Assembly: GCA_017308135.1 (NCBI GenBank)
Contig: JAFKFM010000014.1
Coordinates: forward strand, 65,507 to 129,506
Length of the DNA: 64,000 nucleotides
Reading direction: 5' to 3'
Source of the DNA: Alphaproteobacteria bacterium
GTDB lineage: Bacteria; Pseudomonadota; Alphaproteobacteria; CACIAM-22H2
Positions within the stretch are counted from its first letter, which is position 1, and every line of letters begins with the position of its first letter. The notes beneath the pieces are model-generated. The model made no database searches. It saw only the letters and a list, made by a program, of their open reading frames with translations, and was not told where the DNA came from. Below are positions 6,766 to 46,814 of the stretch, piece by piece. The position numbers and the translations under genes are program-made.

Positions 6766-6769
<4 letters not shown>
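4856..6769 (+). CDS. Fused LivM-like permease and LivG-like ATP-binding protein (637 aa)
   Basis: The N-terminal ~330 aa form a polytopic membrane domain. A low-complexity linker (AEPDEAASGLTAEQEQKAAKAE) follows. The C-terminal part carries Walker A (GPNGAGKST), the ABC signature and Walker B. The start is coupled to the upstream stop (TGAATG). Confidence 0.8.
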
Positions 6770-7464
<695 letters not shown>

Positions 7465-16530: not shown

Positions 16531-16631
16531 GCTCGGTGCTCCTTGCTGGATAGAAATCAGTTGGTTCGCCGCTTGAGATGGCGGCAGTCAGATACTGACG
16601 AAGCAAGAGCGATGCCAAGATCATCACCGTC

Positions 16632-18428: not shown

Positions 18429-18824
18429 TTGTTATTCCTGCATCGGTTGCGCGAAATGCGCGTCTCCATGCAAGGATCATGCAATGAGTGTTCCAGTTTT
18501 CCGACGTGCGGATTGTGTGAGATCTTTAAGCAATGACGAATGATGCAATCAGATAGCAGCTTAGATAAAGGCGTTGATGCCTTGCCATGATTAAGCCAGT
18601 CGCGTCGCACGTATTGACGCAAACCATCAGATCGCGGTTAAGCGTATGATTTCGCCCGCGGAACCAGCTTGGTACTGGAATTTGTTCGGTTGCACATAAC
18701 GTAAGCAGTTCAGCGCATCGGAAATGAGCATCTGCTTCAGCCCATGTCGCCTGACCAAATGGAACGGCTGAGCATGCCCCTCCGAATCGATCCGAGAAGG
18801 CGGGTGAAACGGGACAGTCGCCAC

Positions 18825-18865
18825 TTGACGCCTTCTCACTTGGCATTATAGCTTTGCATCAAAGT
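18825..18865 (+). promoter_or_regulatory. Putative sigma70-type promoter (TTGACG-16-TATAGC) with overlapping dyad GCTTTG-cat-CAAAGT, upstream of the HpaB-like gene
   Basis: Read from the sequence. About 50 nt upstream of the ATG at 18916. Confidence 0.35.
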
Positions 18866-18915
18866 TAATTGAGTGGCCGCCATGCCGGTGAGCATTGCAG
18901 GAATTGGGGAGCATC

Positions 18916-20412
18916 ATGATCAAGAACGGCGAACAGCATATTGCCAGCCTGCGTGACGGCCGCGAGGTTTACCTCGATGGTGAACTGGTCAAGGACGTTA
19001 CCACCCATCCAGCCTATCGCGGAGCAGTCGCTTCAATCGGACGTATGTTCGACTTCCAGAGCGCGCCGGAAAATCGCGATCTCATGACGTTCGAGACTGA
19101 GACCGGAACCCGCGCCAACCGGATATGGGAATTGCCGGGCAGCTACGACGCGCTGGTCAAGCGCCGTAAGGGCCTTGAGGCATGGACCGAACTTCATGCG
19201 GGATTCATGGGCCGCGCGCCGGACCATGTCGCATCCTGCATCGCGGGAATGTTCATGGGGCTCGATGTGTTCGAGGCTTATAATCCCGAACGTGCAAAGG
19301 CTCTTGCTGACTATTATCGCCATGCGCGCGACAACGATCTCTATCTGACTTACGTCATCATCAATCCGCAGGCTGACCGCTCCAAGAGTGCGGCCCAGCA
19401 GGCTGATCCGTTCCTGTCGGCGGGCGTTGTTTCGCGTGAGGCAGATGGTCTGATCATCCGCGGGGCCAAGATGCTGGCCACCGGCGGAATCATGGCCAAC
19501 GAAGTTTTCGTCACCTGCATTCAACCGCTGCAGCCCGGCGACGAGAAGTACGCGGTGTCCTTCGCCATTCCGATGAATACCAAGGGTCTGAAGATCCTGT
19601 CGCGCAAATCCTATGAAGCCGGCGCGAATTCGGTATTCGATAGCCCGCTCTCCAGCCGCTTCGACGAAAACGACGCGGTGCTCTATTTCGATGACGTGAA
19701 GGTGCCGTGGGATCGCGTGTTCATCGATCAGGACATCGCGATGTGCCAGAAGCAGTTCCATGCGACGCCGGCGCATGTATATCAGAACTATCAGGCAATG
19801 ATCCGGCTGACGGTCAAGCTGCGCTTTCTTACCGGTGTCGCGCATCGCACTGCCGAGATCAATGGCATCGTCGGCTTCCCGCAGGTTCGGGAAATGCTCG
19901 GTCAGCTTGCCGCCGAAGTCTCGATGGTGGAAGCTTTCGTGCTCGGCATGGAAGCCAAGGGCACGCAGCGCGGTCAATACTTCACGCCAGACCGGGCGCT
20001 CCTGTACGGAGCACAGGTGCTGACCCAGCAGCTCTATGCAAAGGTCATCAACACACTGCGCGAACTCGCCGGCGGCGGCATGATCATGCTGCCTTCCTCG
20101 GTGAAGGATTTCGCAAATCCCGAACTGGCGGCGTTGATCGGAAAGACTCAGCAGTCGCCGGCGGCGAATGCCGTCGACAAGGTGAAGTTCTACAAGCTTG
20201 CCTGGGATGCGGTGGGGTCCGAGTTTGCATCGCGGCATTCGCAATACGAAATGTTCTTTGCCGGCGCGACCTTCGTCACCAAGGGCCATGCGTTCCGCAC
20301 CTTCGATTGGGCGCAGTCGACTGCATTGCTCGACAAGATGCTGTCCAGCTACGATCTGGCGGATGAACTCACAACCGGTGGAAAATCTCCGGCGTCCCGC
20401 GCGGTCGCTTGA
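18916..20412 (+). CDS. 4-hydroxyphenylacetate 3-monooxygenase (HpaB) family flavin-dependent monooxygenase, oxygenase component
   Basis: N-terminal LRDGREVYLDGELVKDVTTHPAYRGAVASIGRMFDF matches the HpaB family. 499 aa. GGGGAG RBS. Confidence 0.85.
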   Translation: MIKNGEQHIASLRDGREVYLDGELVKDVTTHPAYRGAVASIGRMFDFQSAPENRDLMTFETETGTRANRIWELPGSYDALVKRRKGLEAWTELHAGFMGRAPDHVASCIAGMFMGLDVFEAYNPERAKALADYYRHARDNDLYLTYVIINPQADRSKSAAQQADPFLSAGVVSREADGLIIRGAKMLATGGIMANEVFVTCIQPLQPGDEKYAVSFAIPMNTKGLKILSRKSYEAGANSVFDSPLSSRFDENDAVLYFDDVKVPWDRVFIDQDIAMCQKQFHATPAHVYQNYQAMIRLTVKLRFLTGVAHRTAEINGIVGFPQVREMLGQLAAEVSMVEAFVLGMEAKGTQRGQYFTPDRALLYGAQVLTQQLYAKVINTLRELAGGGMIMLPSSVKDFANPELAALIGKTQQSPAANAVDKVKFYKLAWDAVGSEFASRHSQYEMFFAGATFVTKGHAFRTFDWAQSTALLDKMLSSYDLADELTTGGKSPASRAVA

Positions 20413-20816
20413 TCGGATAGACCGAAGGTCGGCCATTATCGCCGACACCCTTCACGATGGATTGCGCGCTGTCGATCCGTCGTGATGTTGCGTGCTGAGG
20501 CTATATTTCTCGGCGTTCGGTAAGCGGAGCTTAGCCAAGATATCGAGCAGCCAGATGGTGCGGCGGATGATGATCCGCTGCGGCAGACGTTTACACAGCC
20601 GAACCATTCGTCCATGAATATAAAGGTGCATCTGTTCACCGCCGATGTCGTCATCGCCGGTTCAGATGCGGGGAGGGGTCGGCTGACCGAATGCCTACGA
20701 AGCTACTTGCCATGCGGCAAATGCGGCCCATGGGGCCTGCACGGGAAGCCATGTGTTGACGGAGGCGCGCCATTTCGATCCAAGCTGAAACCGAGCCGCG
20801 GCGACTGATCGTCGGC

Positions 20817-21380
20817 ATGACCGGAGCGTCCGGTGCCATCTATGGCGTCCGGCTTCTTCAGCTATTGCAGCAGACTGACGTGGAAACACATCTTGTGCTG
20901 AGCAAGTCGGCCAAGATCACCTTGGCGCAGGAACTGGATATCAAGGTTTCCGATGTCCTCGCGCTCGCCGATGTCGTCCATCAGGCGGAGAATATCGGAG
21001 CCACGATTTCCAGCGGATCGTTCGCCACCATGGGCATGATAATCGCGCCGTGCTCCATGCGCAGTATGGCGGAGATATCGTCTGGCGCAACATCTTCACT
21101 GGTGACGCGCGCCGCCGACGTCGTGTTGAAGGAGCGCCGTCGTCTGGTTTTGATGGTCCGCGAAACACCGCTGCATCTCGGTCATCTCAGATCGATGGTT
21201 GCGGTGACTGAAATGGGCGGGATCGTCTATCCGCCGGTTCCGGCCTTCTATGCCAAGCCGTCAAGCATCGATCAGATGGTCGATCAGACGTTGGGGCGCG
21301 TGCTGGATCTTTTCGCGATCAAGACGGATGTCGTCCGTCGCTGGGAAGGGCTTACTCCGAGTAAAAGTCGAGATCAGTGA
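20817..21380 (+). CDS. UbiX/PAD1-family flavin prenyltransferase (prFMN synthase). The true start is probably upstream (ATT at 20772).
   Basis: GMTGASGAIYGVRLLQ...CSMRSMAEISSG. The conserved RRLIVG strand is encoded in frame immediately upstream of the first ATG. Confidence 0.8.
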   Translation: MTGASGAIYGVRLLQLLQQTDVETHLVLSKSAKITLAQELDIKVSDVLALADVVHQAENIGATISSGSFATMGMIIAPCSMRSMAEISSGATSSLVTRAADVVLKERRRLVLMVRETPLHLGHLRSMVAVTEMGGIVYPPVPAFYAKPSSIDQMVDQTLGRVLDLFAIKTDVVRRWEGLTPSKSRDQ

Positions 21381-21418
21381 CGGGTTAATTTGCAACGGGT
21401 CTTTGGGGGAGGGCGCGA

Positions 21419-21949
21419 ATGGCAAAGGAAGGCGAGAATTTCTCGAACGAAAGCTGGTCTTTCGCGTTGCGTCTCTATGCGGAGTCCGGCGTGGCCGAAG
21501 CGTGCCTTCGTTTGCAATCTATTGCGGGCGTCGATGTGATGATGCTTCTTGCTGTCTTATTCGCTGCGTCGCAAAAGAATATCTCATTGTCCTTTGAAGA
21601 TGTGAAAGCACTGGACGGTGTTTGCCGTCCATGGCGCGAGCAGGTCGTTCATCCTCTGCGTGCGCTGCGAACCGCTTTGAAGTCTGGACCGGCGCCCGCT
21701 CCAACATCTGAAACCGACCAGCTGCGTTCGCGCATCAAGGCCGATGAGCTTCAGGCTGAGCAGATCGAGAACGATCTGCTCGGCAACTGGCTGCAGCATA
21801 AAACACGGGCACCGGCCGCACTCTCGCGACATCAGGTCCGCGGCATTCTGGCAGACGTTGTGCGGTGCTTTGGTGCCGATTCCTCAACGATCGAAGTCTC
21901 TGCTGAGGTCGATGTCATTCTCGGCGCGACCGCCAGGCTCTCTGCATAG
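21419..21949 (+). CDS. Conserved hypothetical protein, DUF2390/TIGR02444-like (recognised from memory only)
   Basis: N-terminal SWSFALRLYAESGVAEACLRLQSIAGVDVMMLLAVLFAA pattern. Lies between the UbiX-like and UbiD-like genes. Confidence 0.55.
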   Translation: MAKEGENFSNESWSFALRLYAESGVAEACLRLQSIAGVDVMMLLAVLFAASQKNISLSFEDVKALDGVCRPWREQVVHPLRALRTALKSGPAPAPTSETDQLRSRIKADELQAEQIENDLLGNWLQHKTRAPAALSRHQVRGILADVVRCFGADSSTIEVSAEVDVILGATARLSA

Positions 21950-21996
21950 TGCGGTGCACGCTGTTAATTTAATCAGCGAATGCTTGTTTCGTGTTC

Positions 21997-22024
21997 TTGA
22001 CTAGCTTTGTAATTTAACTATCGT
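21997..22024 (+). promoter_or_regulatory. Putative promoter/operator TTGACTAGCTTTGTAATTTAACTATCGT (-35 TTGACT, 16-nt spacer, -10 TATCGT) upstream of the UbiD-like gene
   Basis: A near-identical 24-nt motif recurs at 29115-29142. Confidence 0.45.
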
Positions 22025-22057
22025 CCAATGCAATTTCTTGTGGGGACAGGACCTGAT

Positions 22058-23482
22058 ATGGCGCAGCCGCAAATTCTCGATACTCGTTTTCGTTCGGCGC
22101 TGGCGCGTCTTGCCAAGAAAGATCGCATCCTGACGTTTGAAAAGACGGCGGACCCCCATCTTGAAATCGCAGCGGTCTTGAAGAAGCACGATGGCCGCCA
22201 AACGATGCTGTTTCCCGCAGTCAAGGGATACGATGTTCCGCTGGTCGGTAATCTTCTCAGCTCGAAGGAGAATTGCGAGGCTGCGTTTGATCTCGATTTT
22301 CGTGGCATCCGCGGATTGGTTCAGCGCGCGCTCGGCGGACCATTGCCGCCGGAACTCGTCACGAATGCGCCTTCGCAGGAGGTTGTTCTTAAAACCGGAT
22401 TCGATGTCACCAAGCTGCTGCCTGCGCTTTTCCACGCGCCGGGTGATGCAGGGCGCTACGTCACCGCGGGGATCGTGATCGTCAAAGATCCTGAGACGGG
22501 TATCTACAACGCATCCTATCATCGCTTGCAGTTGCTGGGGCCGGATCGCTTCGCAATCAAGCTCGACTTCGGCCGGCATCTTCGTCTGGCATTCGAACGC
22601 GCCAAAGCGCGCGGCAAGTCGCTGCCGGTCGCCGTCTGTATCGGTACGGATCTTGCGCTGCATTTTACCGCCGCCACGATGGGCTCGCAGATGCCTGAGA
22701 CGGCTGACGAGCTTGCAGTTGCCGGTGGCCTTGCGGGGCGGCCGTTGACGGTTGCGAAGGCCGTGTCGCAAGACATGATCGTTCCGGCCGAATGCGAGTT
22801 CGTGCTCGAAGGCGAAATCTCGATTGACGAGGTTGCTCCGGAAGGACCGTTCGGCGAGTTCGTCGGGTTCGCCGCTCCCGCGGCCGATGCCCCCATTCTG
22901 AAGGTCACGGCGGTGACCCACCGCATGCGGCCGATCTATCACGTCATCAACGGCTTCGGCCGCGAGACGATTATCCTGCGCAAATACGTGTTGGAAGCGA
23001 GCCTTCTCAAGGTATTGCAGGCTGCAATCCCGATCGTGACGGATGTTGAGATGACGTCGGGCGGTTTGCACCGTTTTCATGCAATCATTCAGGTCGAGAA
23101 GCGGAGCCGTCAGCACAATGGATTGCAGCGCAACGCCATTCTCGCGGCGTTCGGCGCGCTGAAGGATTTGGATCTGATCACTGTGGTCGATCACGATATC
23201 GATATTCGCGACCCGATCGATGTCGAGTACGCGATCGCAACACGCATGGAAGCGTCGAGCGATCTATTCCTCATTCCCGGCGCGCGTGGGCACGAATATG
23301 TTCGTGTCAGCAAGGATGGTATCCGCACCAAACTCGGTATCGACGCAACGGTGCCTTTTGAGGATCAGGACAAGTTCCGGCGTGTTGAATTTGCCAAAAC
23401 CGATATCGAGCTTGGCGATTTTACACCGGGTGCCAATACGGCGATCCAGTCGCTCGGGATCGACGGATCGAACATCGCATAA
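22058..23482 (+). CDS. UbiD-family prFMN-dependent (de)carboxylase
   Basis: The N-terminal region and the APEGPFGEFVGF motif match UbiD-family decarboxylases. 474 aa. Confidence 0.85.
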   Translation: MAQPQILDTRFRSALARLAKKDRILTFEKTADPHLEIAAVLKKHDGRQTMLFPAVKGYDVPLVGNLLSSKENCEAAFDLDFRGIRGLVQRALGGPLPPELVTNAPSQEVVLKTGFDVTKLLPALFHAPGDAGRYVTAGIVIVKDPETGIYNASYHRLQLLGPDRFAIKLDFGRHLRLAFERAKARGKSLPVAVCIGTDLALHFTAATMGSQMPETADELAVAGGLAGRPLTVAKAVSQDMIVPAECEFVLEGEISIDEVAPEGPFGEFVGFAAPAADAPILKVTAVTHRMRPIYHVINGFGRETIILRKYVLEASLLKVLQAAIPIVTDVEMTSGGLHRFHAIIQVEKRSRQHNGLQRNAILAAFGALKDLDLITVVDHDIDIRDPIDVEYAIATRMEASSDLFLIPGARGHEYVRVSKDGIRTKLGIDATVPFEDQDKFRRVEFAKTDIELGDFTPGANTAIQSLGIDGSNIA

Positions 23483-23535
23483 ATTCACGTTGCATAAGGC
23501 CGTCTCACTAAACCTCTCAACGATCGGAAACTCCA

Positions 23536-24504
23536 ATGAAGCGACTTCTTATAGCAGCCTTGCTTGTGGGCACCGGACTAAGCGTTTCTACTGCTTCCGC
23601 GCAGGAATGGCCGAGCAAGTCGGCGATCAAGCTCGTCGTGCCTTATGCTCCCGGAGGATATACCGACTCCGTCGGTCGTATTACTGCGCGTTTTCTTGAA
23701 AAAGAACTCGGGCAGACGGTGATCGTCGACAACCGTCCGGGTGGAGGCGGCATCGTCGGTTCTGATCTGGTGTCGAAGTCCCCCGGCGACGGCTATACGC
23801 TTTGCATCTGCAGCGTGGGCGCAATCTCGATTGCTCCGGTGGCGCAGACCACGTCCTACGATCCGGTTAAAAGCTTCAAGCCGATCAGCATCGTCAGCAC
23901 CATCCCGCAGATGGTAATCGTCAATCCGTCGCTGCCGATCAACTCGATGGACGATCTGGTTAAGTATGCCAAGGCCAATCCCGGAAAGCTCACCTTCGGC
24001 TCGAGCGGCGCCGGTGGCCTGATGTATTACTCGGTCGCGCTGTTCGATAGCCGCGTCGGTACAAAAATGACTCATGTGCCGTTCAAGGGCGGAGCGCCGG
24101 CAACTGCCGCCGTGGTCGCGGGCGAGGTGAACCTGTCTTTCACCAACATGACGGATGCCCTGCCGCAGCTCGAGGCGAAAACCGTTCGTGCTCTCGCAGT
24201 GACGTCGGCAGGCCGTAGCGAGTTCGCCCCGAAGGTTCCGACTGTCGCCGAGACTGTCCTGCCTGGATATGCGGTTGAGTCTTGGAACGGCGTCATGGCA
24301 CCGGCCTCGACGCCCGATGCGATTGTCACAAAGGTTTCCGATGCCCTCAAGAAGATGGCAGCCGATCCCGAGGTGAAGAAGCAGATGTCGGTCGCAGGCG
24401 CGTCGACCGTGTTCACGACGCCAGCCGAATATAGCGCGCAGATCGCCAAGGAAGTCGATCAGTGGCGGGCGCTGCTCAAGGAAATCTCGGAAAAGAAGAC
24501 CTGA
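23536..24504 (+). CDS. tctC: Tripartite tricarboxylate transporter substrate-binding protein (TctC/Bug family)
   Basis: Signal peptide. VVPYAPGGYTDSVGRI...DNRPGGGG motifs typical of Bug/TctC. Confidence 0.85.
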   Translation: MKRLLIAALLVGTGLSVSTASAQEWPSKSAIKLVVPYAPGGYTDSVGRITARFLEKELGQTVIVDNRPGGGGIVGSDLVSKSPGDGYTLCICSVGAISIAPVAQTTSYDPVKSFKPISIVSTIPQMVIVNPSLPINSMDDLVKYAKANPGKLTFGSSGAGGLMYYSVALFDSRVGTKMTHVPFKGGAPATAAVVAGEVNLSFTNMTDALPQLEAKTVRALAVTSAGRSEFAPKVPTVAETVLPGYAVESWNGVMAPASTPDAIVTKVSDALKKMAADPEVKKQMSVAGASTVFTTPAEYSAQIAKEVDQWRALLKEISEKKT

Positions 24505-24579
24505 GCTTCAGCGATCGGCGGGCGGTGAGCTAGGTCTCACCGCTCGCCTTCTGTCTTCCGGCGGCATGGGAGCTTGCCA

Positions 24580-25029
24580 ATGAAATCTATCGCTCGGCGT
24601 GGAAATACCGACGTCTATTCGGGATTTCTTCTCGTTGCCATCTCGACTGTGGCGCTGCTGTACATCCGCACTCTGACGATCGGTACCGTGCTCGACATGG
24701 GGCCGGGCTATTTTCCTCTCGGTCTTGCCTTGATTTTGCTGGGCATGGGACTTGTCCTTGTGGTCAAGGGCCTTGCCGCGACGGGCTCGCCGGTCGGCAC
24801 CATTCATCTCCGCCCGCTCTTCTTTATCCTGCTGTCCTTCGCGGTGTTCGGCCTGCTGATCGAACGTGCTGGCCTCGTGATTGCGGTTCTGATGCAGGTC
24901 GCCATCGCGCATTTCGCCTCGCGTGAAAGCACCTGGCTTGCGAGCGTCATTACGGGCATTGCACTGGCGGTCGCGTCTTCCGTCGTCTTTGTCTGGCTTC
25001 TCAAGATTCCGGTGAACGTGCTGCCATGA
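24580..25029 (+). CDS. tctB: Tripartite tricarboxylate transporter small permease (TctB family)
   Basis: About 150 aa, four hydrophobic segments. Located between the tctC and tctA genes. Confidence 0.7.
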   Translation: MKSIARRGNTDVYSGFLLVAISTVALLYIRTLTIGTVLDMGPGYFPLGLALILLGMGLVLVVKGLAATGSPVGTIHLRPLFFILLSFAVFGLLIERAGLVIAVLMQVAIAHFASRESTWLASVITGIALAVASSVVFVWLLKIPVNVLP

Positions 25030-26528
25030 CGGATATCTTCGCTGCTCTCGGCCACGGTTTCTCTGTCGCGGCCACGCCTCTCAACCTGTTGTTCTGTTTG
25101 ATCGGCGCCATTTGCGGCACGCTGATCGGCGTGTTGCCGGGACTCGGACCGGTGGCAACGATTTCTTTGCTTCTGCCGGCGACCTATGCACTCGATCCGG
25201 TGAGTGCGATCATCATGCTCGCGGGCATTTATTACGGTGCGCAGTATGGCGGTTCGACCACGGCGATCCTTGTCAACATTCCGGGCGAGTCCACGTCGGT
25301 GGTGACGGCTATCGATGGTTACAAGATGGCGCAGCAGGGGCGGGCGGGCGAGGCGCTTGCCATCGCCGCCATCGGCTCTTTCATCGCGGGCTGTTTTGGA
25401 ACCGTGATTATTGCGCTGCTCGGACCGCCGTTGGCCGTGATGACACAGAAATTTGCGTCGCCTGATTATTTTTCGCTGATGGTGCTGGGTCTCGTCTCCG
25501 CCGTTGTGCTCGCCAACGGATCGGCTTTTCATGCGATCGCGATGATCTTCCTCGGCCTGCTGCTTGGCATGGTCGGCATGGACCTCAATACCGGCGAAGC
25601 GCGCATGACGTTCGGTCTGATCGAATTGTCGGATGGCATCAACTTCGTTGCACTGGTGATGGGTCTGTTCGGTGTTGCCGAGGTCATTGCCAATCTGGAA
25701 GGCGTTTCAACGCGGATTGTCAATCACTCCAAGATCAACAGCATCTGGCCGTCGTTCAAGGTACTGCGTGGCGCCTGGGGCGCAGTCACGCGCGGGACCC
25801 TGTTGGGGACGTTATTCGGCATTCTGCCGGGTGGCGGCGCAACCATTGCATCTTTTTCCTCCTATGCGCTCGAGAAGCGCGTTTCGAAGACGCCGGAGCG
25901 CTTCGGCAATGGAGCTATTGAGGGCGTCGCGGGGCCGGAGTCGGCCAACAATGCGGCAGCACAGACGTCCTTCGTTCCGCTCCTGACCATGGGCATTCCG
26001 ACCAGCGCAACCATGGCGCTTCTGGTCGGTGCGCTGACCTTGCACGGCATTGCTCCGGGGCCGACCATCATTTCGCGCCAGCCGGATCTGTTCTGGGGGC
26101 TGATCGCAAGCATGTTCATCGGCAATGCGATGCTGGTGATCATCAACCTGCCGATGATTGGAATCTGGGTCCGTCTGCTCAACGTGCCTTACCGGATCCT
26201 TTATCTTGTCATCGTCGTGATTTGCGCGATTGGCGTTTTCTCGGTCAACAACTCGAGTTTCGACATTTACATGACGGTCGGGTTCACGGCGCTCGGCTAC
26301 ATCCTGCGCAAGCTGAATGCCGAACCGGCGCCATTGCTGATGGGATTTGTCCTCGGTCCGATGCTGGAGGAGAATTTCCGCCGCAGCCTGATCACGGCGC
26401 ATGGGGATCCGACCGTGTTTCTGCAGAGGCCGATTAGCCTCGTTCTGCTGCTGTTGTCACTGGGATTGCTGATTTCGATCCTGATGCCTTCCATCAGCAA
26501 GCGCCGCCAGGAAGTCTTTCAGGAGTGA
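25026..26528 (+). CDS. tctA: Tripartite tricarboxylate transporter large permease (TctA family)
   Basis: 500-aa polytopic membrane protein. ATGA overlap with the tctB gene. Confidence 0.85.
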   Translation: MTDIFAALGHGFSVAATPLNLLFCLIGAICGTLIGVLPGLGPVATISLLLPATYALDPVSAIIMLAGIYYGAQYGGSTTAILVNIPGESTSVVTAIDGYKMAQQGRAGEALAIAAIGSFIAGCFGTVIIALLGPPLAVMTQKFASPDYFSLMVLGLVSAVVLANGSAFHAIAMIFLGLLLGMVGMDLNTGEARMTFGLIELSDGINFVALVMGLFGVAEVIANLEGVSTRIVNHSKINSIWPSFKVLRGAWGAVTRGTLLGTLFGILPGGGATIASFSSYALEKRVSKTPERFGNGAIEGVAGPESANNAAAQTSFVPLLTMGIPTSATMALLVGALTLHGIAPGPTIISRQPDLFWGLIASMFIGNAMLVIINLPMIGIWVRLLNVPYRILYLVIVVICAIGVFSVNNSSFDIYMTVGFTALGYILRKLNAEPAPLLMGFVLGPMLEENFRRSLITAHGDPTVFLQRPISLVLLLLSLGLLISILMPSISKRRQEVFQE

Positions 26529-26573
26529 CGACGGCTCGTTGTCGCGCCTCCAATTGAGATCGGGACTAACAAC

Positions 26574-28250
26574 ATGAACAAGCATCAATCGGCGCAGGCC
26601 GTGACCGGAGAAGCCGGCTTGCGCAATGGCGGGCAAATTCTGGTGTCTGCGTTGCGGCGCAATGGAGCCGATCGCATGTTCGGCGTGCCTGGTGAAAGCG
26701 CACTGCCGATTTTCGACGCTGTTTATGAGCCTGATGCTGGTGTCCGGTTCATTATGTGCCGGCACGAGGCGACGGCGTCCCACATGGCGGAGGCTGACGG
26801 TAAGCTCTCCAAGCGGCCCGGTATTTGCGTGGTAAGCCGTGGCCCAGGCGCGATGCAGGCGGCGATAGGTTTACATACGGCATGGCAGGATTCCACGCCG
26901 ATGATCTTGATTGTCGGCCAGGTGCCGCGCAGCCATCGCGGCCGCGAAGCCTTTCAGGAAATGGATTATAGCCGGACGTTCGATGATATGACGAAGTGGG
27001 CGGTGGAGATCGACTCCGTCGATCGCATTCCCGAGATTGTCAGCCGTGCTTTCCATGTCGCGATGCAGGGGCGCCCGGGACCAGTGGTCTTGTCGATACC
27101 CGAAGACGTGCTGAGCGCGACAAGCAGTGTCGCCGATGCTGCGCCGGCGACGACCATTGATGCCGCGCCGTCGGCCCAACAGATGGCCGATGTACGTCGG
27201 CTTCTGCAGCAGGCGCAGCGTCCATTGGTTATTGTTGGGAATCTCGGTTGGAATGTAGAGGCGGCTTCCAGGTTCCGCACCTTCGTGGAGCAAAACAATC
27301 TGCCGGTTGTCGCGGGATTCCGGTCGCAGGACGTGCTCGACAATCGCTCCGAACAATATATCGGCGACATCAGCCTCGGTTGCAGCCGGCCGCTGATGGC
27401 GCGGGTAAAGACGGCGGACCTGCTTCTTGTGATCGGTGATCGTCTCGGCGACGTCACCACCAATCATTATTCGCTGTTCGATGTGCCGACGCCGAAGCAG
27501 GCACTGATTCATGTTTTCCCCGGGCCGGAAGAACTCGGGCGAGTCTATGTGCCGACACTCGGCATTCCTGCCAATTCCTCTCGCTTTGCCGAAGCTCTCG
27601 CGCAGCTCGATCCTCTCGATCATTCGTCCTGGGATGCGTGGCGGGCGGAATCGCGTCTGGCCTATGTCGAGTATCAGGCGCCGCGACCGGATTTTCCGCC
27701 TTTCGATCTTGCGAAGGTGATTGATCACCTCAACACCGCATTACCTGACGATGCGATCGTAACAAACGGAGCCGGCAATTACACGGTCTGGCTGCACCGT
27801 TATTATCGCTATCGCGGCCTTGGCACCCAGATCGCTCCGAAGTCCGGCACCATGGGGTATGGACTGCCCGCCGCGGTCGCCGCGCAACTGCGCCATCCCG
27901 AACGCCGGGTTGTCTGTCTCGCCGGGGATGGCTGTTTCATGATGGCCTCGCAGGAATTCGCAACCGTCGTTCAGCAGAAGCTCCCGGTCGTCATCATCAT
28001 CGTCAACAACACGATGTACGGCTCGATCCGCATGCATCAGGAATTGAGCTTTCCGAACCGCCCCAGCGGGACGGATCTGCTGAATCCGGATTTTGCAGCG
28101 CTGGCGAAATCCTATGGTGCGTATGGCGAAGCCATCGACGCACATGACGATTTCCCGGCGGCCTTTTCGCGTGCGGTTAACGCGGGTGGCCCCGCGATCA
28201 TCGAACTTCGCGTCAACCGCAAGCAACTGACTCCGGATCGCTCGCTCTGA
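26574..28250 (+). CDS. Thiamine pyrophosphate-dependent enzyme, acetolactate synthase/benzoylformate decarboxylase superfamily
   Basis: N-terminal TPP pyrimidine-binding domain. C-terminal GDGCFMM...NN TPP-binding motif. 558 aa. Confidence 0.8.
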   Translation: MNKHQSAQAVTGEAGLRNGGQILVSALRRNGADRMFGVPGESALPIFDAVYEPDAGVRFIMCRHEATASHMAEADGKLSKRPGICVVSRGPGAMQAAIGLHTAWQDSTPMILIVGQVPRSHRGREAFQEMDYSRTFDDMTKWAVEIDSVDRIPEIVSRAFHVAMQGRPGPVVLSIPEDVLSATSSVADAAPATTIDAAPSAQQMADVRRLLQQAQRPLVIVGNLGWNVEAASRFRTFVEQNNLPVVAGFRSQDVLDNRSEQYIGDISLGCSRPLMARVKTADLLLVIGDRLGDVTTNHYSLFDVPTPKQALIHVFPGPEELGRVYVPTLGIPANSSRFAEALAQLDPLDHSSWDAWRAESRLAYVEYQAPRPDFPPFDLAKVIDHLNTALPDDAIVTNGAGNYTVWLHRYYRYRGLGTQIAPKSGTMGYGLPAAVAAQLRHPERRVVCLAGDGCFMMASQEFATVVQQKLPVVIIIVNNTMYGSIRMHQELSFPNRPSGTDLLNPDFAALAKSYGAYGEAIDAHDDFPAAFSRAVNAGGPAIIELRVNRKQLTPDRSL

Positions 28251-28346
28251 GGAGGTCATAAGCAGGCCGGGAACACGGATCAGCAGGTATGACGCAGCCA
28301 AGGGAGCGCGAATATTGCGTTGTCCCTCGTTGAATTAATACCTACA

Positions 28347-28383
28347 GTTAGCCAGTAAGCTGAATTGATTCCAGTCGAACTAT
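28347..28383 (+). promoter_or_regulatory. Half-sites related to the island operator (AGTTAGCCAGTAAGCT and AACTATC) immediately upstream of the MarR gene RBS
   Basis: Matches to AGTTAGCTAGTA (29131-29142) and AACTATC (22016-22022). Confidence 0.3.
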
Positions 28384-28398
28384 CAGGAGTTGCCCCGC

Positions 28399-28977
28399 GT
28401 GCCGGGATCGACGGTGACAAAACCAGAACTGATGCCCGGAGGGGATGATGCGGTTTTTCGCACCTTCATTCACGACTTTCTGGCATTTAGCGCGCGTGTC
28501 GACCAATGCCGGGTTGGATTCGGCGAGCGTCTCGGAATTTCAGGCATCGCATATACGACCCTGATATCGATCGCCTACCTGCAGGGTGAGAAGGGAGTCG
28601 GCGTAAGCCGCGTTGCCGAGCACCTTCATCTGTCGGGCGCATTTGTCACCATTGAAGTGTCGAAGCTGGTCGAAGCCGATCTCGTGAAGAAGCGGGTCAA
28701 CGAAAGCGACCGCCGTCGCGTCTTGCTGACGGTGACGCCCAAAGCGAAGCGGCTGCTCGATGAGCTTGCCAGCATTCAGGCTCCCGTCAACGACGCTCTT
28801 TTCGGCTGTCTCAGCGCCGCCGAGTTTGCGCTGTTGTCATCGATGCTGGCGCGCCTCGTCCCTTGCGGCGACAAGGCGGTTTCGATGCTCGCTTTCACGT
28901 CGAAGTGGTCGAAGGCGCCAGCTGTGAAGTCTGCGAATTCCATAGAGAAGCGCAAAAGCAAAAGGCGTGCAGCCTGA
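28399..28977 (+). CDS. MarR-family transcriptional regulator
   Basis: Winged helix: LISIAYLQGEKGVGVSRVAEHLHLSGAFVTIEVSKLVEADLVKKR. AGGAG RBS. GTG start proposed; the ORF is open from 28390. Confidence 0.7.
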   Translation: MPGSTVTKPELMPGGDDAVFRTFIHDFLAFSARVDQCRVGFGERLGISGIAYTTLISIAYLQGEKGVGVSRVAEHLHLSGAFVTIEVSKLVEADLVKKRVNESDRRRVLLTVTPKAKRLLDELASIQAPVNDALFGCLSAAEFALLSSMLARLVPCGDKAVSMLAFTSKWSKAPAVKSANSIEKRKSKRRAA

Positions 28978-29114
28978 TCGGCTGCAAGACGTCCTTCCTC
29001 CAATCCAATTGTTGACCGACCAGCGGTTGATCGCGTTTGCACGCTGCAGAGTGGCTGATGTTCGCTGTGCTGCAGCACCGAAATTTTTCCTCGCGGGGAC
29101 GAGTTGCGTGCTGC

Positions 29115-29142
29115 TTGACTAGCTTTGTAAGTTAGCTAGTAT
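29115..29142 (+). promoter_or_regulatory. Putative promoter/operator TTGACTAGCTTTGTAAGTTAGCTAGTAT with a perfect 7-9-7 inverted repeat (ACTAGCT...AGCTAGT) between -35 and -10
   Basis: Read from the sequence. Lies upstream of the aldehyde dehydrogenase gene with a ~165-nt leader. Confidence 0.5.
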
Positions 29143-29306
29143 TTTTTGATATTTCGACGGTCGGAGAAACGGCGCGCGGCGTCGGCATTCCGGTGTGCTT
29201 TTGCAAGCCGTTGAGGTGGCTAAGTCCAAAACTTCTGGCGCGAATTTTCGTCGCGCTGTTTCCCTGACGAATCGTAAACGTCCTTTGCTGCTGGACCCGT
29301 GGGTGA

Positions 29307-30776
29307 ATGATGCAAAACTTCGACGTGATTTCGTGTTTCATCGGCGGCAAGAGCGAGCAGGGCGGCAACTATTTCGAGAAGCGCTATCCGGCGACCGGAG
29401 AGGTCATTGCGAAGGTGGTCGAGTCGGACCAGGCGCAGGTTGATCGTGCTGTCGATGCTGCGCGCAAAGCGCTGTCAGGTCCCTGGAAGAACACCACCAT
29501 GCTCGAGCGTGCTGCGTTCCTGGAACGCCTTGCAAACAAGCTCGATGAGCACATCGATGAACTCGTCGCCGAAGAAATCAAGGATACCGGGAAGCCCATA
29601 ACCGCGACCCGTAATGTCGAAATTCCGCGCGCTATCGCGAATTTCCGGGCGTTCGCGGCGATTGCCCGCGAAGATCATCTCAAGCCATTTCAGACGAATA
29701 TGCTCGCGGGAGGCGTCGCGGACAACATGGTGCTGCGACAGCCAATCGGAGTCATCGGGATTGTCGCGCCGTGGAATCTCCCGCTGCTGCTTCTGACCTG
29801 GAAGGTTGCGCCAGCGCTTGTCTGCGGCAACACCATTGTCGTGAAGCCTTCGGAGCATTCACCGCGCACCGCTGTTCTGCTGGCTAAAATCGCGCATGCG
29901 GTCGGGCTGCCTGATGGCGTGCTCAACGTCGTGCACGGTCACGGCGCGGATGCGGCCGGAAGTTTCCTCGTGTCGCATTCCGATGTCGGTGCGATCACGT
30001 TCACGGGCGAAACACGAACGGGCGAGGTAATCATGAAGGCTGCGGCCATGGGTCCGCGCCCGGTTTCGCTTGAACTTGGTGGAAAGAACGCCGCGGTCAT
30101 TTTCGATGATGCTGACTTCGATGCCGCAGCTGCGGGTACGGTCCGCTCCATGTTCGACAATTGCGGGCAGGTGTGTCTGACGACCGAGCGCATCTTTGTG
30201 CATCGCAAGATATTTGCGCCGTTTGTCGAGCGTCTTGCGGATCTCACGAAGAAGCTTCAGCCGGGCGACCCGCACCTTGCGGTGACGACCTTGGGGCCGG
30301 CGATCAGTGATATTCAACGCGACAAGGTTCTGGGCTTTTACCGCCGGGCCGAGCAGGAAGGCGCCCAGGTCGTCACCGGCGGAGGCGCGTTGCAGATGCC
30401 TGCGTCTTTCGCGGATGGCTATTGGGTCGCGCCGACGATCTGGACCGGCCTGCCTGACGATGCGGAAGTCTGTCAAAGAGAGGTGTTCGGCCCCTGCGGA
30501 CATATTTCGGTTTTCGATGATGACGACGAAGTCGTGAAGCGGGTCAACAATTCGAGTTACGGTCTCGCATCGACGGTGTGGACGAAAAACATGGAGCGGG
30601 CACGCAAGGTCGCCACGGAAATCGAAACCGGGACGGTATGGGTGAACTGCTGGCGGGTGCGCGATGAGCGGGCGGCTTTCGGCGGCTTCAAGCGTTCAGG
30701 CATCGGCCGGGAAGGCGGGACGTGGTCGCTCGATTTCTACTCCGAATTGAAGACGGTTTGCGCTTATACGTCGTGA
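29307..30776 (+). CDS. NAD(P)-dependent aldehyde dehydrogenase, hydroxymuconic-semialdehyde dehydrogenase-like
   Basis: ALDH motifs ELGGKNAAVIF and catalytic Cys in FDNCGQVC. 489 aa. Confidence 0.85.
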   Translation: MMQNFDVISCFIGGKSEQGGNYFEKRYPATGEVIAKVVESDQAQVDRAVDAARKALSGPWKNTTMLERAAFLERLANKLDEHIDELVAEEIKDTGKPITATRNVEIPRAIANFRAFAAIAREDHLKPFQTNMLAGGVADNMVLRQPIGVIGIVAPWNLPLLLLTWKVAPALVCGNTIVVKPSEHSPRTAVLLAKIAHAVGLPDGVLNVVHGHGADAAGSFLVSHSDVGAITFTGETRTGEVIMKAAAMGPRPVSLELGGKNAAVIFDDADFDAAAAGTVRSMFDNCGQVCLTTERIFVHRKIFAPFVERLADLTKKLQPGDPHLAVTTLGPAISDIQRDKVLGFYRRAEQEGAQVVTGGGALQMPASFADGYWVAPTIWTGLPDDAEVCQREVFGPCGHISVFDDDDEVVKRVNNSSYGLASTVWTKNMERARKVATEIETGTVWVNCWRVRDERAAFGGFKRSGIGREGGTWSLDFYSELKTVCAYTS

Positions 30777-30895
30777 GTCCGCATGTCCGGCTGAGGCGCA
30801 TTGCGTTTGCCGCTGCCCACAACAACAGCAGCGTCTGCCCTATATTTGGTGCAGAAAGGCGGCGGGAGTGGCTTGCTAGGCAGAGGCAAAACGTG

Positions 30896-30928
30896 TTGAC
30901 TGCCGTCATATTGGCTTTATATTAAAGC
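30896..30928 (+). promoter_or_regulatory. Putative promoter TTGACT-17-TATATT with perfect dyad GCTTTA-tat-TAAAGC overlapping the -10
   Basis: Read from the sequence. About 50 nt upstream of the flavin reductase GTG start. Confidence 0.45.
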
Positions 30929-30977
30929 TAATATTGCAAATGAACATGGGGCTGGTTTCGTCAATGAGGTTGCGTCC

Positions 30978-31496
30978 GTGCAGGATCGTGCTTTCAGGCG
31001 TACGTTAGGGGAATTTGCGACCGGCGTTGCCGTGGTGACGGCGCGCGGCAGGGGCGATGATCTGGTCGGAATGACGATGAGTTCGTTCAATTCCGTTTCC
31101 GTCGATCCTCCGCTTGTCCTCTTTAGCGTCGATCGAAAGGCTCTCAGCCTGCCGGCGATGCAGGAAGCCAAAGGCTTCGCAATCAACGTGCTGGCGCGCG
31201 AGCAGGAAAACGTTTCCAATCAATTCGCGCGGGCTCTCTCCAACAAATGGGATCAGGTGAAGACGAGCGTCGGTCATGCCGAAGCTCCGCTGATTTCCGG
31301 CGCGCTAGCTCATTTTGAGTGCGAACCCTATGCGACTTACGATGGCGGCGACCACGTTATTTTCGTGGTGCGCGTCGTTCGCTATTCATCGCATCCGTCC
31401 TCGCCCGCGCCGCTGGTTTTCTTCCGTGGCCGCTATCGCGATTTGGTTGATGAAGCCGAGCGGACACCCGAGTGGCCACTCCCCATTCATTACTGA
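30978..31496 (+). CDS. NAD(P)H-flavin reductase (HpaC/flavin reductase-like domain)
   Basis: FRRTLGEFATGVAVVTA...GMTMSSFNSVSVDPPLVLFSV matches flavin reductase domains. Confidence 0.8.
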   Translation: MQDRAFRRTLGEFATGVAVVTARGRGDDLVGMTMSSFNSVSVDPPLVLFSVDRKALSLPAMQEAKGFAINVLAREQENVSNQFARALSNKWDQVKTSVGHAEAPLISGALAHFECEPYATYDGGDHVIFVVRVVRYSSHPSSPAPLVFFRGRYRDLVDEAERTPEWPLPIHY

Positions 31497-31708
31497 CATG
31501 CCGGCAGTGGAGATTCCTGTTTTGATCGGAAAGACCCGACCATCGCCAAGGCTGCTTCGATCGCGCAGACGTTCTGCTCGCTCGGCCGGGGCGCGGTTCG
31601 TTCCGAATTCGGTTCGCGTTACCGGCCGACGCTTGATTTCTATGGCCCGAGCGGCATTGTTGCCGCGCAGGGCAGGACCGCCTGATTTATTCTTCAAGGA
31701 GAACGACA

Positions 31709-32089
31709 ATGCCAGTGAACAAGAAGCATGACGAATTCCACACGATTGACCTGAAGAGCGGTTGGGAAACCCCGGCAGGCTATCCGGCAGGCATCCAGCA
31801 AAAGATTCTGTCCGGTTCTCTTGATGAGACAAACAACCGCGGCACACGGACGCGGCTGCTTCGCTTTGAACCGGGCGTCTACACAACTGCGCCGTTCTCC
31901 CACGACTATTGGGAAGAAGTGTATCTCATCTCCGGCGATCTGATTGTTGGCAATGATGCGAACGGCGAAGGTGGCGAGAGCTTTCAGCCGAACACCTACG
32001 CCTGCCGCCCGCCGCATGCGAAGCATGGACCGTTCAAGTCCATCAATGGCTGCATGCTCGTTGAAATCCATTATTTCGATCCGGTCTGA
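31709..32089 (+). CDS. Cupin-domain protein
   Basis: 126 aa. The two-His cupin motif region YWEEVYLISGDL...HAKHGP. Confidence 0.65.
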   Translation: MPVNKKHDEFHTIDLKSGWETPAGYPAGIQQKILSGSLDETNNRGTRTRLLRFEPGVYTTAPFSHDYWEEVYLISGDLIVGNDANGEGGESFQPNTYACRPPHAKHGPFKSINGCMLVEIHYFDPV

Positions 32090-32097
32090 GGACAGGG

Positions 32098-32124
32098 CGG
32101 CCTTCACTTGTTCGCGAAGGCCGC
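32098..32124 (+). terminator. 9-bp GC-rich hairpin (GCGGCCTTC...GAAGGCCGC) followed by TTTCACTTT. Terminator or attenuator between the cupin gene and the transporter operon.
   Basis: Inverted repeat read from the sequence. Confidence 0.4.
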
Positions 32125-32145
32125 TTTCACTTTAAGGAGACAATC

Positions 32146-33441
32146 ATGAAGTTGAGGACGGCACTTTCCGCACTTGCGCTCGTCGGTAGCCTGGGAGCGA
32201 CCATGCCTGCGGTCGCTCAGACCAAGCCGGATTCGCTGGGGCTGGGTATTTTCACGTTTACGTCCGGACCGGCCGCTGCTTACGGGATGCCCGGCAAGAA
32301 CGCTGCGGACCTGATGATCGAGCAGATCAACGCAGCCGGCGGCATCGGCGGCGTGAAGATCGTGCCGACCTATGTCGATGAAGCCCAAGGCGCCCAAGGC
32401 GTCATCGCGGAGTATCGCCGCCTGTCTGGCGAGGCGAGCAATCAGGTGATGATTGCCGCGTTGTCGAGTGCGAACTGTCTCGCGCTGGCGCCTCTCGCCG
32501 AGCAGCTTCAGGTGCCGACGGTGGGCTGGAATTGCGATACGCATCATCTTCTGCTGGATGGCAAGAGCAAGTATGTGTTCCGTCCGAACGGCAACACCGT
32601 TCCCGAATTCGTCGCCTATGCGGTTTACCTTCTGGCCCGTAAGCCGGATGTAAAGACGGTTGCGATCATCAATCCGGACTATGCGTTCGGACATGATGCG
32701 GCGACGATCTTCAAGGCCGCGCTGAAAGCCCTGCGCCCGGATATCCAGGTGGTGGCCGAACTCTTCCCGAAGATGGGCTCGCCGAACTACCAGACCGAAA
32801 TTTCGCGCCTGACCACGGCGCGGCCAGATGTCGTGTTCTCCAACCTTTGGGGTGCGGATCTCGAAAACTTCGTGCGGCAAGCGCAGCCGCGCGGTCTTTT
32901 CAGCTCCAGCCAAGTTGTCCTTGCGCTCGGCGAAACTGTGCTGCAGCGCGTGCCGCTGCCGGAGGGTGTGATCGTCGGCGTGCTCGGCGATGGCTGGTGG
33001 ATGTCGCCAGACGCTGCGGCGAACGCGCAGACAAAGAAGTTTGTCGACGCGTATAAGGCTAAGTATGGCGAGTATCCGGTGTTCCCGTCGATCAAGATGG
33101 CGAATACGCTGCTCTACGTGAAGGCAGCCTATGAAGCCGCGATGAAGAAGAACGGTGGTAAGTGGCCGAGCCGCGCCGAACTCGTCGATGCGATGCGCGG
33201 AAGCAAGGTGCCGACGCTCACCGGCACCACTGTGACGCGTGCGGACAATGATGGCATGGTCGATCAGATCGTCGGCGTGACGGTGAAGTCGCCTAACCAG
33301 AGCTTCCCGGTGATCGGCGAGATGGTGCGTTACAAAGGCGATGCGCTGATGCCGAAGGAAGGACAGGATCCGATCGGCTGGATCTCGACCTTGACGCCGG
33401 CTTTTGCTGCTTCGCTTCCGAAGCCCGGTAGCTACAAGTAA
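32146..33441 (+). CDS. ABC transporter substrate-binding protein, LivK-like family, with signal peptide
   Basis: Signal peptide ALALVGSLGATMPAVA. Type-I periplasmic binding fold. Confidence 0.85.
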   Translation: MKLRTALSALALVGSLGATMPAVAQTKPDSLGLGIFTFTSGPAAAYGMPGKNAADLMIEQINAAGGIGGVKIVPTYVDEAQGAQGVIAEYRRLSGEASNQVMIAALSSANCLALAPLAEQLQVPTVGWNCDTHHLLLDGKSKYVFRPNGNTVPEFVAYAVYLLARKPDVKTVAIINPDYAFGHDAATIFKAALKALRPDIQVVAELFPKMGSPNYQTEISRLTTARPDVVFSNLWGADLENFVRQAQPRGLFSSSQVVLALGETVLQRVPLPEGVIVGVLGDGWWMSPDAAANAQTKKFVDAYKAKYGEYPVFPSIKMANTLLYVKAAYEAAMKKNGGKWPSRAELVDAMRGSKVPTLTGTTVTRADNDGMVDQIVGVTVKSPNQSFPVIGEMVRYKGDALMPKEGQDPIGWISTLTPAFAASLPKPGSYK

Positions 33442-33494
33442 TCCGTGACAGCTGGCCTCCCGCGACATATCCGCGGGAGGCCGTGCCGGAAAGC

Positions 33495-37431: not shown

Positions 37432-37481
37432 GCGCTGGCCGGATACATCTTCCTCACCAACTCCCGCATGAGACCTTGCCG

Positions 37482-46706: not shown

Positions 46707-46814
46707 GGGTCTAATTTTTAGAATTCTGACTTCGAATTTCAATGCTTTTATTCGATCTCCTAATTTGTCATGCTTCGCGGCAAGTCACGCTTTTGTTCTC
46801 GATGGAGAAACCAG

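Follow-up and report, generated by a model that had tools for sequence, protein, structure and literature searches.

UbiD enzymes are wanted as reversible (de)carboxylases for bio-based aromatic acids; few of their specificities are known, and many of them resist activation. Among the closest described systems is hmfFGH'H/hmfABCDE, which serves the degradation of 5-hydroxymethylfurfural (HMF) and 2,5-furandicarboxylate (FDCA) in Cupriavidus basilensis HMF14 and is also found on C. necator plasmid pENH92 (locus L086). Lower pathways of the maleamate or 2-oxoglutaramate type (nic, pic, and nicotine clusters) and amidase-family aminomuconate deaminases (CnbZ) combine hydroxylation, ring opening, amide or enamine hydrolysis, and release of ammonia. 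In the UbiD-family enzyme HmfF, the active-site residue His296/297 is reported to set the furan specificity (PMC7976604). The prenylated flavin mononucleotide (prFMN) cofactor is attended by LpdD/VdcD, a prFMNH2 chaperone, of which LpdD resembles the Pba3/4 chaperone (PMC10865409), and by PhdC, a prFMN maturase of the HpaC-like flavin reductase family (PMC13040415). Here we analyzed a window of 64,000 nucleotides from an alphaproteobacterium (contig JAFKFM010000014.1, positions 65,507 to 129,506 of the forward strand), in which genes for an HpaB-like oxygenase, UbiX, a DUF2390 protein, and UbiD lie together with a tricarboxylate-type transporter. By sequence comparison, these genes belong to a conserved cluster that differs from the known vdc, bsd, aroY, hmf, and hpa operons. 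We propose that a single MarR-type regulon (18849-38771) degrades a nitrogen-containing (hetero)aromatic carboxylic acid together with a more carboxylated precursor, a reading for and against which we see about equal weight.

The genes of the window were identified by open reading frame (ORF) listing combined with Pfam and NCBIfam profile searches. The jointly oriented block covers about 20 kb of the plus strand (about 18.85 to 38.77 kb) and holds about 21 genes. All 12 genes of the original prediction were observed where it had placed them, on the plus strand, and its gene list was thus borne out by both sets of profiles. The end it had set for the unit, at 32124, was too early: the plus-strand run continues for about 6.6 kb to 38771 and adds a five-gene ATP-binding cassette (ABC) importer, a DUF2848 protein, and an amidase. 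After 38771, the strand switches to L-arabinonate dehydratase-like and nonribosomal peptide synthetase (NRPS)-like genes. Upstream, the minus-strand ORF 18526-18846 is probably not a gene, because it has no family match and overlaps the operator region described below. None of the proteins of the cluster reached the NCBIfam equivalog cutoff of a characterized enzyme. In the literature, we found no description of this gene combination; DUF2390 appeared only in irrelevant papers, and TIGR02444 and DUF2848 appeared in none. The same contig with identical gene calls was found in several metagenome assemblies, and its nearest named relatives are Tardiphaga and Bradyrhizobium.

Conserved linkage of the genes was observed in many relatives. 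The gene set recurs, in varying order, around UbiD orthologues of Tardiphaga, Bradyrhizobium, Afipia, Xanthobacteraceae, and Propylenella, and in part in Betaproteobacteria; the grouping is far beyond chance. ORF clustering of 26 loci with UbiD orthologues exposed two more recurrent families, a DUF2848 protein and an amidase, to which the window proteins are 46% and 43% identical, respectively. At least 13 Tardiphaga/Bradyrhizobium loci share the order FlavRed-HpaB-Cupin-UbiX-DUF2390-UbiD-TctCBA-TPP, where FlavRed is the flavin reductase and TPP a thiamine diphosphate-dependent enzyme; in these genera, a MarR gene on the minus strand stands ahead of this set. In Xanthobacteraceae and Afipia, MarR-DUF2848 and a minus-strand amidase gene stand next to FlavRed-HpaB-Cupin-UbiD-TctCBA-(ALDH)-TPP-UbiX-DUF2390, with the aldehyde dehydrogenase (ALDH) gene optional. 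Propylenella keeps UbiD, TctCBA, TPP, HpaB, reductase, cupin, and amidase, with UbiX and DUF2390 not found in the stretch examined; Methylocella keeps UbiD, TctC, HpaB, and reductase; the betaproteobacteria Herminiimonas and Lacisediminimonas have UbiD, TctC, HpaB, reductase, TPP enzyme, and cupin together. In a metagenome-assembled genome of Lacisediminimonas (L036:8213-15024), the UbiD orthologue, 61% identical, lies between glnA and ntrB-ntrC, a placement that hints at nitrogen-regulated expression. In Tardiphaga sp. 866_E4_N2_1 (L084:14503-16173), the TPP gene is called in two parts (220 aa and 231 aa) and DUF2390 is truncated to 93 aa, possibly reflecting pseudogenes or assembly errors.

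Comparison of these loci shows the cluster to be a mosaic of two modules. Module A consists of MarR, flavin reductase-HpaB-cupin, DUF2848, amidase, and the ABC importer, and is widespread without UbiD (Camelimonas, Roseateles, and a soil contig). Module B consists of UbiX-DUF2390-UbiD-TctCBA-TPP enzyme, with or without ALDH; some genomes of the Bradyrhizobium type (L010, L048) have UbiD-TctCBA-TPP but neither HpaB nor cupin. The window holds a rearranged version, in which HpaB is about 10 kb from the reductase and cupin genes, with module B between them and everything on one strand. The gap between HpaB and UbiX (20412-20817) was searched for a cupin pseudogene; only about 64 bp (20753-20816, plus strand) are homologous to the UbiX-upstream region of a Tardiphaga locus (L003). 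This short stretch probably includes the 3' end of the cupin gene found there in relatives and would be a trace of the rearrangement.

Alignment of the promoter regions revealed a shared palindrome, TAGCTTT-N5-AAAGCTA, ahead of the HpaB, UbiD, ALDH, and reductase genes. The four copies, all read on the plus strand, lie at 18849-18867 (TAGCTTTGCATCAAAGTTA, 49 bp upstream of the HpaB ATG), 22002-22020 (38 bp upstream of UbiD), 29120-29138 (169 bp upstream of ALDH), and 30912-30930 (TGGCTTTATATTAAAGCTA, 48 bp upstream of the flavin reductase). At the second and third stands the identical 17-mer CTTGACTAGCTTTGTAA, which overlaps -35-like TTGACT boxes. Allowing up to three mismatches, the window holds four matches against 0.66 expected, all upstream of these four genes, a statistic that is partly circular because the operator was first spotted in this window. 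A scan of 97 related loci (1.72 Mb) with up to two mismatches gave 54 matches; 48 of them are upstream of a start of reductase, UbiD, TctC, or MarR by less than 400 bp and another four are just upstream of DUF2848, so that 52 of the 54 lie just upstream of cluster genes. This second check is independent, yet many of the loci are closely related to each other. In most genomes, the palindrome is perfect ahead of FlavRed-HpaB, and a consistent variant (…TTAGCTA) stands ahead of UbiD. It is present in genomes with module A only (Camelimonas, Roseateles) and in loci with module B only (L010, L016, L048). A general promoter and terminator scan of the window was overall not above shuffled expectation. 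Because both modules carry the same palindromic operator, there is strong in silico evidence that one MarR-type regulator controls both as one regulon. Its presumed binder is a MarR-like winged-helix protein (28390-28977, plus strand), whose MarR_2 score of 26.1 bits is just below the Pfam cutoff of 27; this weak match is accompanied by a recurring pseudo-palindromic putative operator in the promoters, and a MarR gene is also found beside the clusters of relatives. The original prediction implied that the genes are co-induced; within the reach of sequence analysis, this is supported by the predicted operator shared within the window and across the 97 related loci.

The predicted decarboxylase (22058-23482, plus strand) has three UbiD domains and scores 305 bits against a cutoff of 245 for TIGR00148, which places it in the generic UbiD subfamily only. 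The VdcC, UbiD, MqnL-type, phenylphosphate carboxylase, and BagN models are far below cutoff (VdcC, 240 vs 650). Among solved proteins, it is closest to HmfF (317 bits), followed by indole-3-carboxylate decarboxylase (206 bits). Identity to HmfF of Pelotomaculum thermopropionicum and Geobacillus kaustophilus and to hmfF loci of Cupriavidus/Paraburkholderia is 35-39%, with the canonical hmfFGH'H loci on Cupriavidus and Paraburkholderia replicons at 36-39%, and all plasmid matches are below 60% identity. The furan-specifying His of HmfF aligns with Thr304 of the window protein, and R304 of P. thermopropionicum HmfF (PtHmfF) aligns with Leu312, while R331 is retained as R339. These residues fall within motifs (GRET..LRKYVLEA and GGLHRFHA) that do not vary among the homologues of at least 55% identity covering the stretch, except that one has Ser for Thr304. 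Among the candidates examined, the clade counts 1,602 proteins at E≤1e-30. It is a distinct clade within the HmfF/AnInD/AroY group, the window member of which is probably not an FDCA decarboxylase. IMG names many orthologues '2,5-furandicarboxylate decarboxylase 1', probably an over-annotation in view of the roughly 36% identity to HmfF, the change of His to Thr304, ALDH and TctC proteins that are not orthologous to those of hmf, the absence of hmfABCDE among the scanned window ORFs, and the generic NCBIfam placement. As in the HmfF/HmfG system, a UbiX gene is nearby (20817-21380, plus strand), and its product, a predicted producer of prFMNH2, passes the curated family cutoff (NF004685, 263 bits vs 188). 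No gene for a VdcD small subunit was found; the protein encoded between UbiX and UbiD belongs to DUF2390.

This DUF2390 protein (21419-21949, plus strand) had been described as 'DUF2390-like', which named the right family and understated the case: it is a bona fide member above both curated cutoffs (TIGR02444, 95 bits vs 48; PF09523, 96 vs 25), with UbiX as its genomic partner. In the loci around UbiD homologues, DUF2390 is never found without UbiX and is in each case its neighbor; it tracks UbiX rather than UbiD. In all 11 unrelated plasmid contexts examined (among them L087-L091 and L098-L101), DUF2390 is no more than about 7 kb away from a gene for UbiX, a UbiD-type protein, or both; the contexts come from Dinoroseobacter, Bosea, two Pseudohalocynthiibacter plasmids, Paracoccus, Brucella anthropi, Sinorhizobium, Agrobacterium vitis, Novosphingobium pNL1 and Sphingobium (beside VdcCD), and Phyllobacterium (beside an unannotated UbiD-like stretch). 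Because UbiX or UbiD is near in every one of these contexts, a reasonable hypothesis is that DUF2390 is a prFMN accessory protein acting in supply, transfer, or maturation. A profile search gave about 4,700 clusters at 50% identity, with W13, Y20, L32, Q33, D39, L44, P79, R81, R84, K88, K107, E110, and E114 invariant. Its AlphaFold model (predicted local distance difference test score of 90) is all-alpha with seven helices, and structure comparison gave no meaningful solved relative.

Another conserved cluster with TIGR02444 was seen on Paracoccus denitrificans plasmid 1 (L088), B. anthropi pOANT03 (L090), and Sinorhizobium meliloti pSymA (L091), in the order HutC/UTRA regulator, UbiD, UbiX, Asp/Glu-racemase-family protein, three-subunit FAD/2Fe-2S oxidoreductase of the D-hydroxyproline/opine-dehydrogenase-like kind, and TIGR02444. 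It may represent a second uncharacterized prFMN pathway, perhaps linked to pyrrole-2-carboxylate derived from hydroxyproline.

The oxygenase component (18916-20412, plus strand; 498 aa, alternative TTG start at 18895) has the Pfam domains HpaB_N and HpaB. Against each HpaB of known structure, its score is about 280 bits, and it falls short of both HpaB equivalog cutoffs (HpaB-1, 350 vs 480). The phenol-binding triad R100/Y104/H142 of the Thermus enzyme (TtHpaB) reads R100/H104/Y146 in the window protein. Its flavin reductase, a 172-aa NAD(P)H-dependent enzyme of the HpaC type (30978-31496, plus strand), completes a component pair like that of HpaBC. We considered PhdC-like prFMN maturation as the main role of this reductase and rejected it; because it matches the HpaC-type models strongly and is encoded directly upstream of HpaB in relatives, we kept it as the HpaB partner. 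The meta-cleavage genes hpaDEFGHI are absent, and the only related protein is the ALDH with a sub-threshold HpaE score (467 vs 638). HpaB-type chemistry requires an electron-rich ring, and pyrrole-2-carboxylate, hydroxypyridine carboxylates, and aminohydroxybenzoates are candidate substrates. A two-component monooxygenase for pyrrole-2-carboxylate, purified out of Rhodococcus, is on record (Becker et al., 1997, as listed in PMC6165268).

The cupin (31709-32089, plus strand) is a Cupin_7/DUF4437-like monocupin of 126 aa with more than 5,000 homologous sequences and 76-96% identity even between Alpha- and Betaproteobacteria; H65, E69, E70, H106, and H121 are invariant. In all cupin contexts examined, it is paired with DUF2848, a distant fumarylacetoacetate hydrolase (FAH)-fold protein (36748-37431, plus strand in the window), and usually accompanied by an amidase and an ABC importer with a Peripla_BP_6 (BP6-type) binding protein. 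The window amidase is of the amidase-signature type (37476-38771, plus strand; ATG at 37494 as a possible start). The oxygenase beside the pair varies: Camelimonas, Roseateles, and the soil contig have FlavRed+HpaB, Pusillimonas has an FAD monooxygenase of the single-component kind, and one further genome has a luciferase-like monooxygenase; none of these has UbiD. In the minimal Camelimonas cluster (L093), four enzymes accompany the hydroxylase. On the Ralstonia solanacearum megaplasmid (L102) and a Vibrio maritimus plasmid (L104), the order is transporter, pyridoxal phosphate-dependent aminotransferase, DUF2848, and cupin, with neither oxygenase nor amidase. This pairing with an aminotransferase without an oxygenase suggests a 2-oxo acid, not an aromatic ring, as the substrate of cupin/DUF2848. 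When the amidase, DUF2848, TctC, and the TPP enzyme were searched by sequence against solved structures, none of them had a relative that points to a specific function.

Two importers are encoded in the block. TctC (23536-24504), TctB (24574-25029), and TctA (25026-26528), all on the plus strand, are encoded together as in tripartite tricarboxylate transporters, and TctC is nearest to receptors of the glutamate/terephthalate/adipate type. Directly 3' of tctC and ahead of tctB, there is a strong 13-pair GC-rich hairpin (24517-24548, plus strand), possibly an intra-operon attenuator or stabilizer, which could raise receptor mRNA relative to the membrane subunits. The ABC importer comprises the BP6-type binding protein (32146-33441), two permeases (33483-34403 and 34400-35326), and two ATPases (35323-36069 and 36066-36764), again on the plus strand. 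Its binding protein is nearest to 3i45 and 4ey3, which we take to be binders of aromatic acids (benzoate derivatives). The two importers fit a precursor/product pair, in which a polycarboxylate would be trimmed by UbiD to a monoacid that is itself the substrate of module A. The TPP enzyme (26574-28250, plus strand) is of the uncharacterized PRK08199 subfamily with an acetolactate-synthase-like fold (781 bits vs cutoff 539), and the ALDH (29307-30776, plus strand) is nearest to 2-hydroxy/2-aminomuconic semialdehyde dehydrogenases (671 bits vs cutoff 693). The two look like a pair of 2-oxoacid decarboxylase and aldehyde dehydrogenase. ALDH and TctC were also tried as orthologues of their hmf-cluster counterparts and rejected at 33% and 38% identity, respectively.

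Uptake, prFMN-dependent decarboxylation, and two-component hydroxylation, as first envisaged, are still the most economical reading. TctCBA would import an aromatic di- or tricarboxylate, and UbiD would remove a ring carboxyl group with prFMN from the cluster's own UbiX, assisted by DUF2390. The resulting monoacid, which could also enter via the aromatic-acid-type ABC importer, would be hydroxylated by the HpaB-like oxygenase and flavin reductase. The cupin, the FAH-like DUF2848 protein, and the amidase would then open and process the hydroxylated ring to ammonia and to 2-oxo or dicarboxylic acids of central metabolism. A side module from 2-oxoacid via aldehyde to acid might be formed by the TPP enzyme and ALDH; it would either feed a side-chain-bearing precursor into the UbiD step or finish a 2-oxoacid product. 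A nitrogen-bearing substrate, which the original prediction had not foreseen, is suggested by the link of the amidase to cupin/DUF2848, its replacement by an aminotransferase in Ralstonia and Vibrio, and the UbiD gene between glnA and ntrBC. The four enzymes beside the hydroxylase in minimal clusters point to a small ring with few steps to central metabolism. The earlier view of a single aromatic-acid set holds for the predicted co-regulation; it does not hold for the composition, which is mosaic, as HpaB, reductase, and cupin belong with DUF2848, amidase, and ABC importer and occur widely without UbiD.

Several points weigh against this proposal, besides the circularity and relatedness mentioned with the operator counts. 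Every single reaction is deduced from protein families and gene linkage, and the sequence of steps and the presence of nitrogen in the substrate are likewise our inference. For about half of the UbiD orthologues, neither HpaB nor cupin lies within 10 kb. Most orthologous clusters lack ALDH, which also weakens the originally proposed downstream semialdehyde oxidation, and the proposal leaves the TPP enzyme without a firm role. The structural neighbors of the cupin are only generic (template modeling score of about 0.64), and the aminotransferase that accompanies the cupin in Ralstonia and Vibrio hints that it could work as an isomerase and not as a dioxygenase. Finally, the target of the amidase could be an exocyclic amide on a phenolic acid without a heterocycle.

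A nitrogen-free phenolic pathway would convert a hydroxy- (or amino-) iso- or terephthalate-type acid by decarboxylation to a hydroxybenzoate and on to a gentisate-like diol, with cleavage by the cupin, release of pyruvate and a C4 diacid by DUF2848, and the amidase only admitting amide analogues. HpaB enzymes do have a preference for phenols, gentisate-type pathways have a cupin and an FAH-fold hydrolase as their two core enzymes, the ALDH is similar to hydroxymuconic semialdehyde dehydrogenase, the two substrate-binding proteins resemble presumed benzoate-derivative binders (3i45, 4ey3) and terephthalate receptors, and a pcaH gene is nearby. Gentisate dioxygenases, however, are bicupins with a length of about 350 aa, in contrast to monocupins of 126 aa; the linkage of the amidase is as tight as that of the cupin, and elsewhere the amidase is replaced by an aminotransferase; the phenol-binding triad of HpaB is altered; and UbiD groups with the heteroaromatic HmfF/AnInD branch instead of that of VdcC. 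We regard this pathway as rather unlikely. A variant furan pathway, in which UbiD/UbiX would be an FDCA decarboxylase (HmfF/HmfG) and 2-furoate would be hydroxylated by HpaB with O2 instead of the CoA/molybdenum route, seems improbable to us. It would agree with the automatic IMG/KEGG labels, with HmfF as the best solved relative of UbiD, and with the TctC receptor and nearby ALDH of canonical hmfFGH'H, and 5-hydroxy-2-furoate would chemically open to 2-oxoglutarate. It has to face the 35-39% identity of UbiD to characterized or canonical HmfF, the Thr304 and Leu312 replacements across the clade, the ALDH and TctC identities of 33% and 38% to the hmf counterparts, and the lack of hmfABCDE and hmfH among the scanned ORFs of the 64-kb window, and it leaves the conserved amidase/aminotransferase unexplained.

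It is also conceivable that there is no common pathway, and that two or three unrelated catabolic modules stand side by side in a transporter-rich island. Module A does occur without UbiD and module B without HpaB (L010, L048), gene order is shuffled between genomes, and the window is full of other aromatic-type ABC systems besides pcaH. On the other hand, many genomes have the same operator ahead of both modules, the modules keep together across families even where the order of their interleaving differs, and in the window module B sits within the 10 kb that separate HpaB from its reductase on one strand. We give this possibility little credence. Within the preferred reading of a nitrogen-containing acid and its more carboxylated precursor, the most specific version, a doubtful one, runs from a pyrrole-2,5-di- or polycarboxylate to pyrrole-2-carboxylate, hydroxylation, lactam opening, and 2-oxoglutarate plus ammonia; routes via hydroxypyridine carboxylates or aminohydroxybenzoates fit about as well. 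More speculatively, and on present evidence unlikely, the cluster may be an O2-dependent route for N-heteroaromatic polycarboxylates (pyrrole-2,5-dicarboxylate; melanin, Maillard, or humic pyrrole di- and tricarboxylates) via pyrrole-2-carboxylate, with a new UbiD specificity clade, a cupin/DUF2848 lower pathway, and DUF2390 as the fourth kind of prFMN-supply protein after UbiX, LpdD/VdcD, and PhdC.

The rest of the window is a transporter-rich catabolic island. The stretch directly upstream of the cluster and divergent from it (13945-18428, minus strand) encodes an allophanate hydrolase, which passes its cutoff with 853 bits, and an NMT1/SsuA-type ABC importer; in three other loci (L096, L097, L084), binding proteins of the NMT1 type likewise lie beside cupin/amidase genes. 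Three more BP6-type ABC systems lie at 2536-7464, 46770-51330, and 55691-58838. A second TctC gene (53516-54550, minus strand) adjoins a gene of the isocitrate/isopropylmalate-dehydrogenase family, and a pcaH-like gene for the protocatechuate 3,4-dioxygenase beta subunit is at 61043-61744. The NRPS-like gene just downstream of the cluster (40658-43915, minus strand) encodes a single-module protein of 1085 aa with AMP-binding, carrier, and thioesterase domains.

The interest of the locus rests mainly on the link between DUF2390 and UbiX, the unstudied cupin/DUF2848 pair, and the testable operator. The UbiD clade is large and probably mis-annotated as FDCA decarboxylase, with its own UbiX and an unstudied partner protein; if DUF2390 does deliver or mature prFMN, it could unlock inactive UbiD enzymes, in the way that LpdD and PhdC have done. 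Cupin and DUF2848 form a widespread and extremely conserved pair without assigned function, and solving it would annotate a common catabolic trait of soil and freshwater bacteria, probably the recycling of nitrogen-containing aromatic debris. The predicted MarR operator offers a direct handle for finding the inducer.

The comparison with known systems shows where the locus departs from them. Its composition is unlike the vdc/bsd/aroY, hpa, and hmf operons, as the original prediction had held for the first two kinds: the equivalog cutoffs are missed, and UbiD is 36% identical to that of canonical hmfFGH'H. The dipicolinate dip cluster was dropped as a match, being GntR-regulated with a different operator, GTATAC, and lacking UbiD (PMC11472048). 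With HpaBC, the locus shares an HpaB_N+HpaB oxygenase with a small Flavin_Reduct partner; it differs in scoring about 280 bits to each solved HpaB, in missing both equivalog cutoffs, in the triad R/H/Y instead of R/Y/H, and in having no hpaDEFGHI. The Rhodococcus pyrrole-2-carboxylate monooxygenase reportedly has subunits of about 54 kDa and 19 kDa, sizes that match the 498 aa and 172 aa of the window pair. Like LpdD/VdcD and PhdC, DUF2390 is a small protein encoded beside UbiX/UbiD in catabolic clusters, whereas those belong to other structural families and DUF2390 has an all-alpha, seven-helix fold without a detectable solved relative. The lower pathways of N-heterocycles likewise lead from a hydroxylase through ring opening and release of ammonia to central metabolism in about four steps; the window has a cupin and DUF2848 instead of NicX, NicD, NicF, NicE, and omega-amidase. 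With hmfFGH'H/hmfABCDE, it has in common a UbiD of the same broad branch, UbiX, TctC, and ALDH, and the proposed logic of decarboxylating a heteroaromatic dicarboxylate to its monoacid. Unlike hmf, it has Thr in place of the furan-specifying His and no GMC oxidase, molybdenum furoyl-CoA dehydrogenase, or CoA ligase; the monoacid would be handled by an O2-dependent two-component monooxygenase together with cupin, DUF2848, and amidase, and the set is extended by a full TctCBA transporter, the TPP enzyme, and DUF2390.

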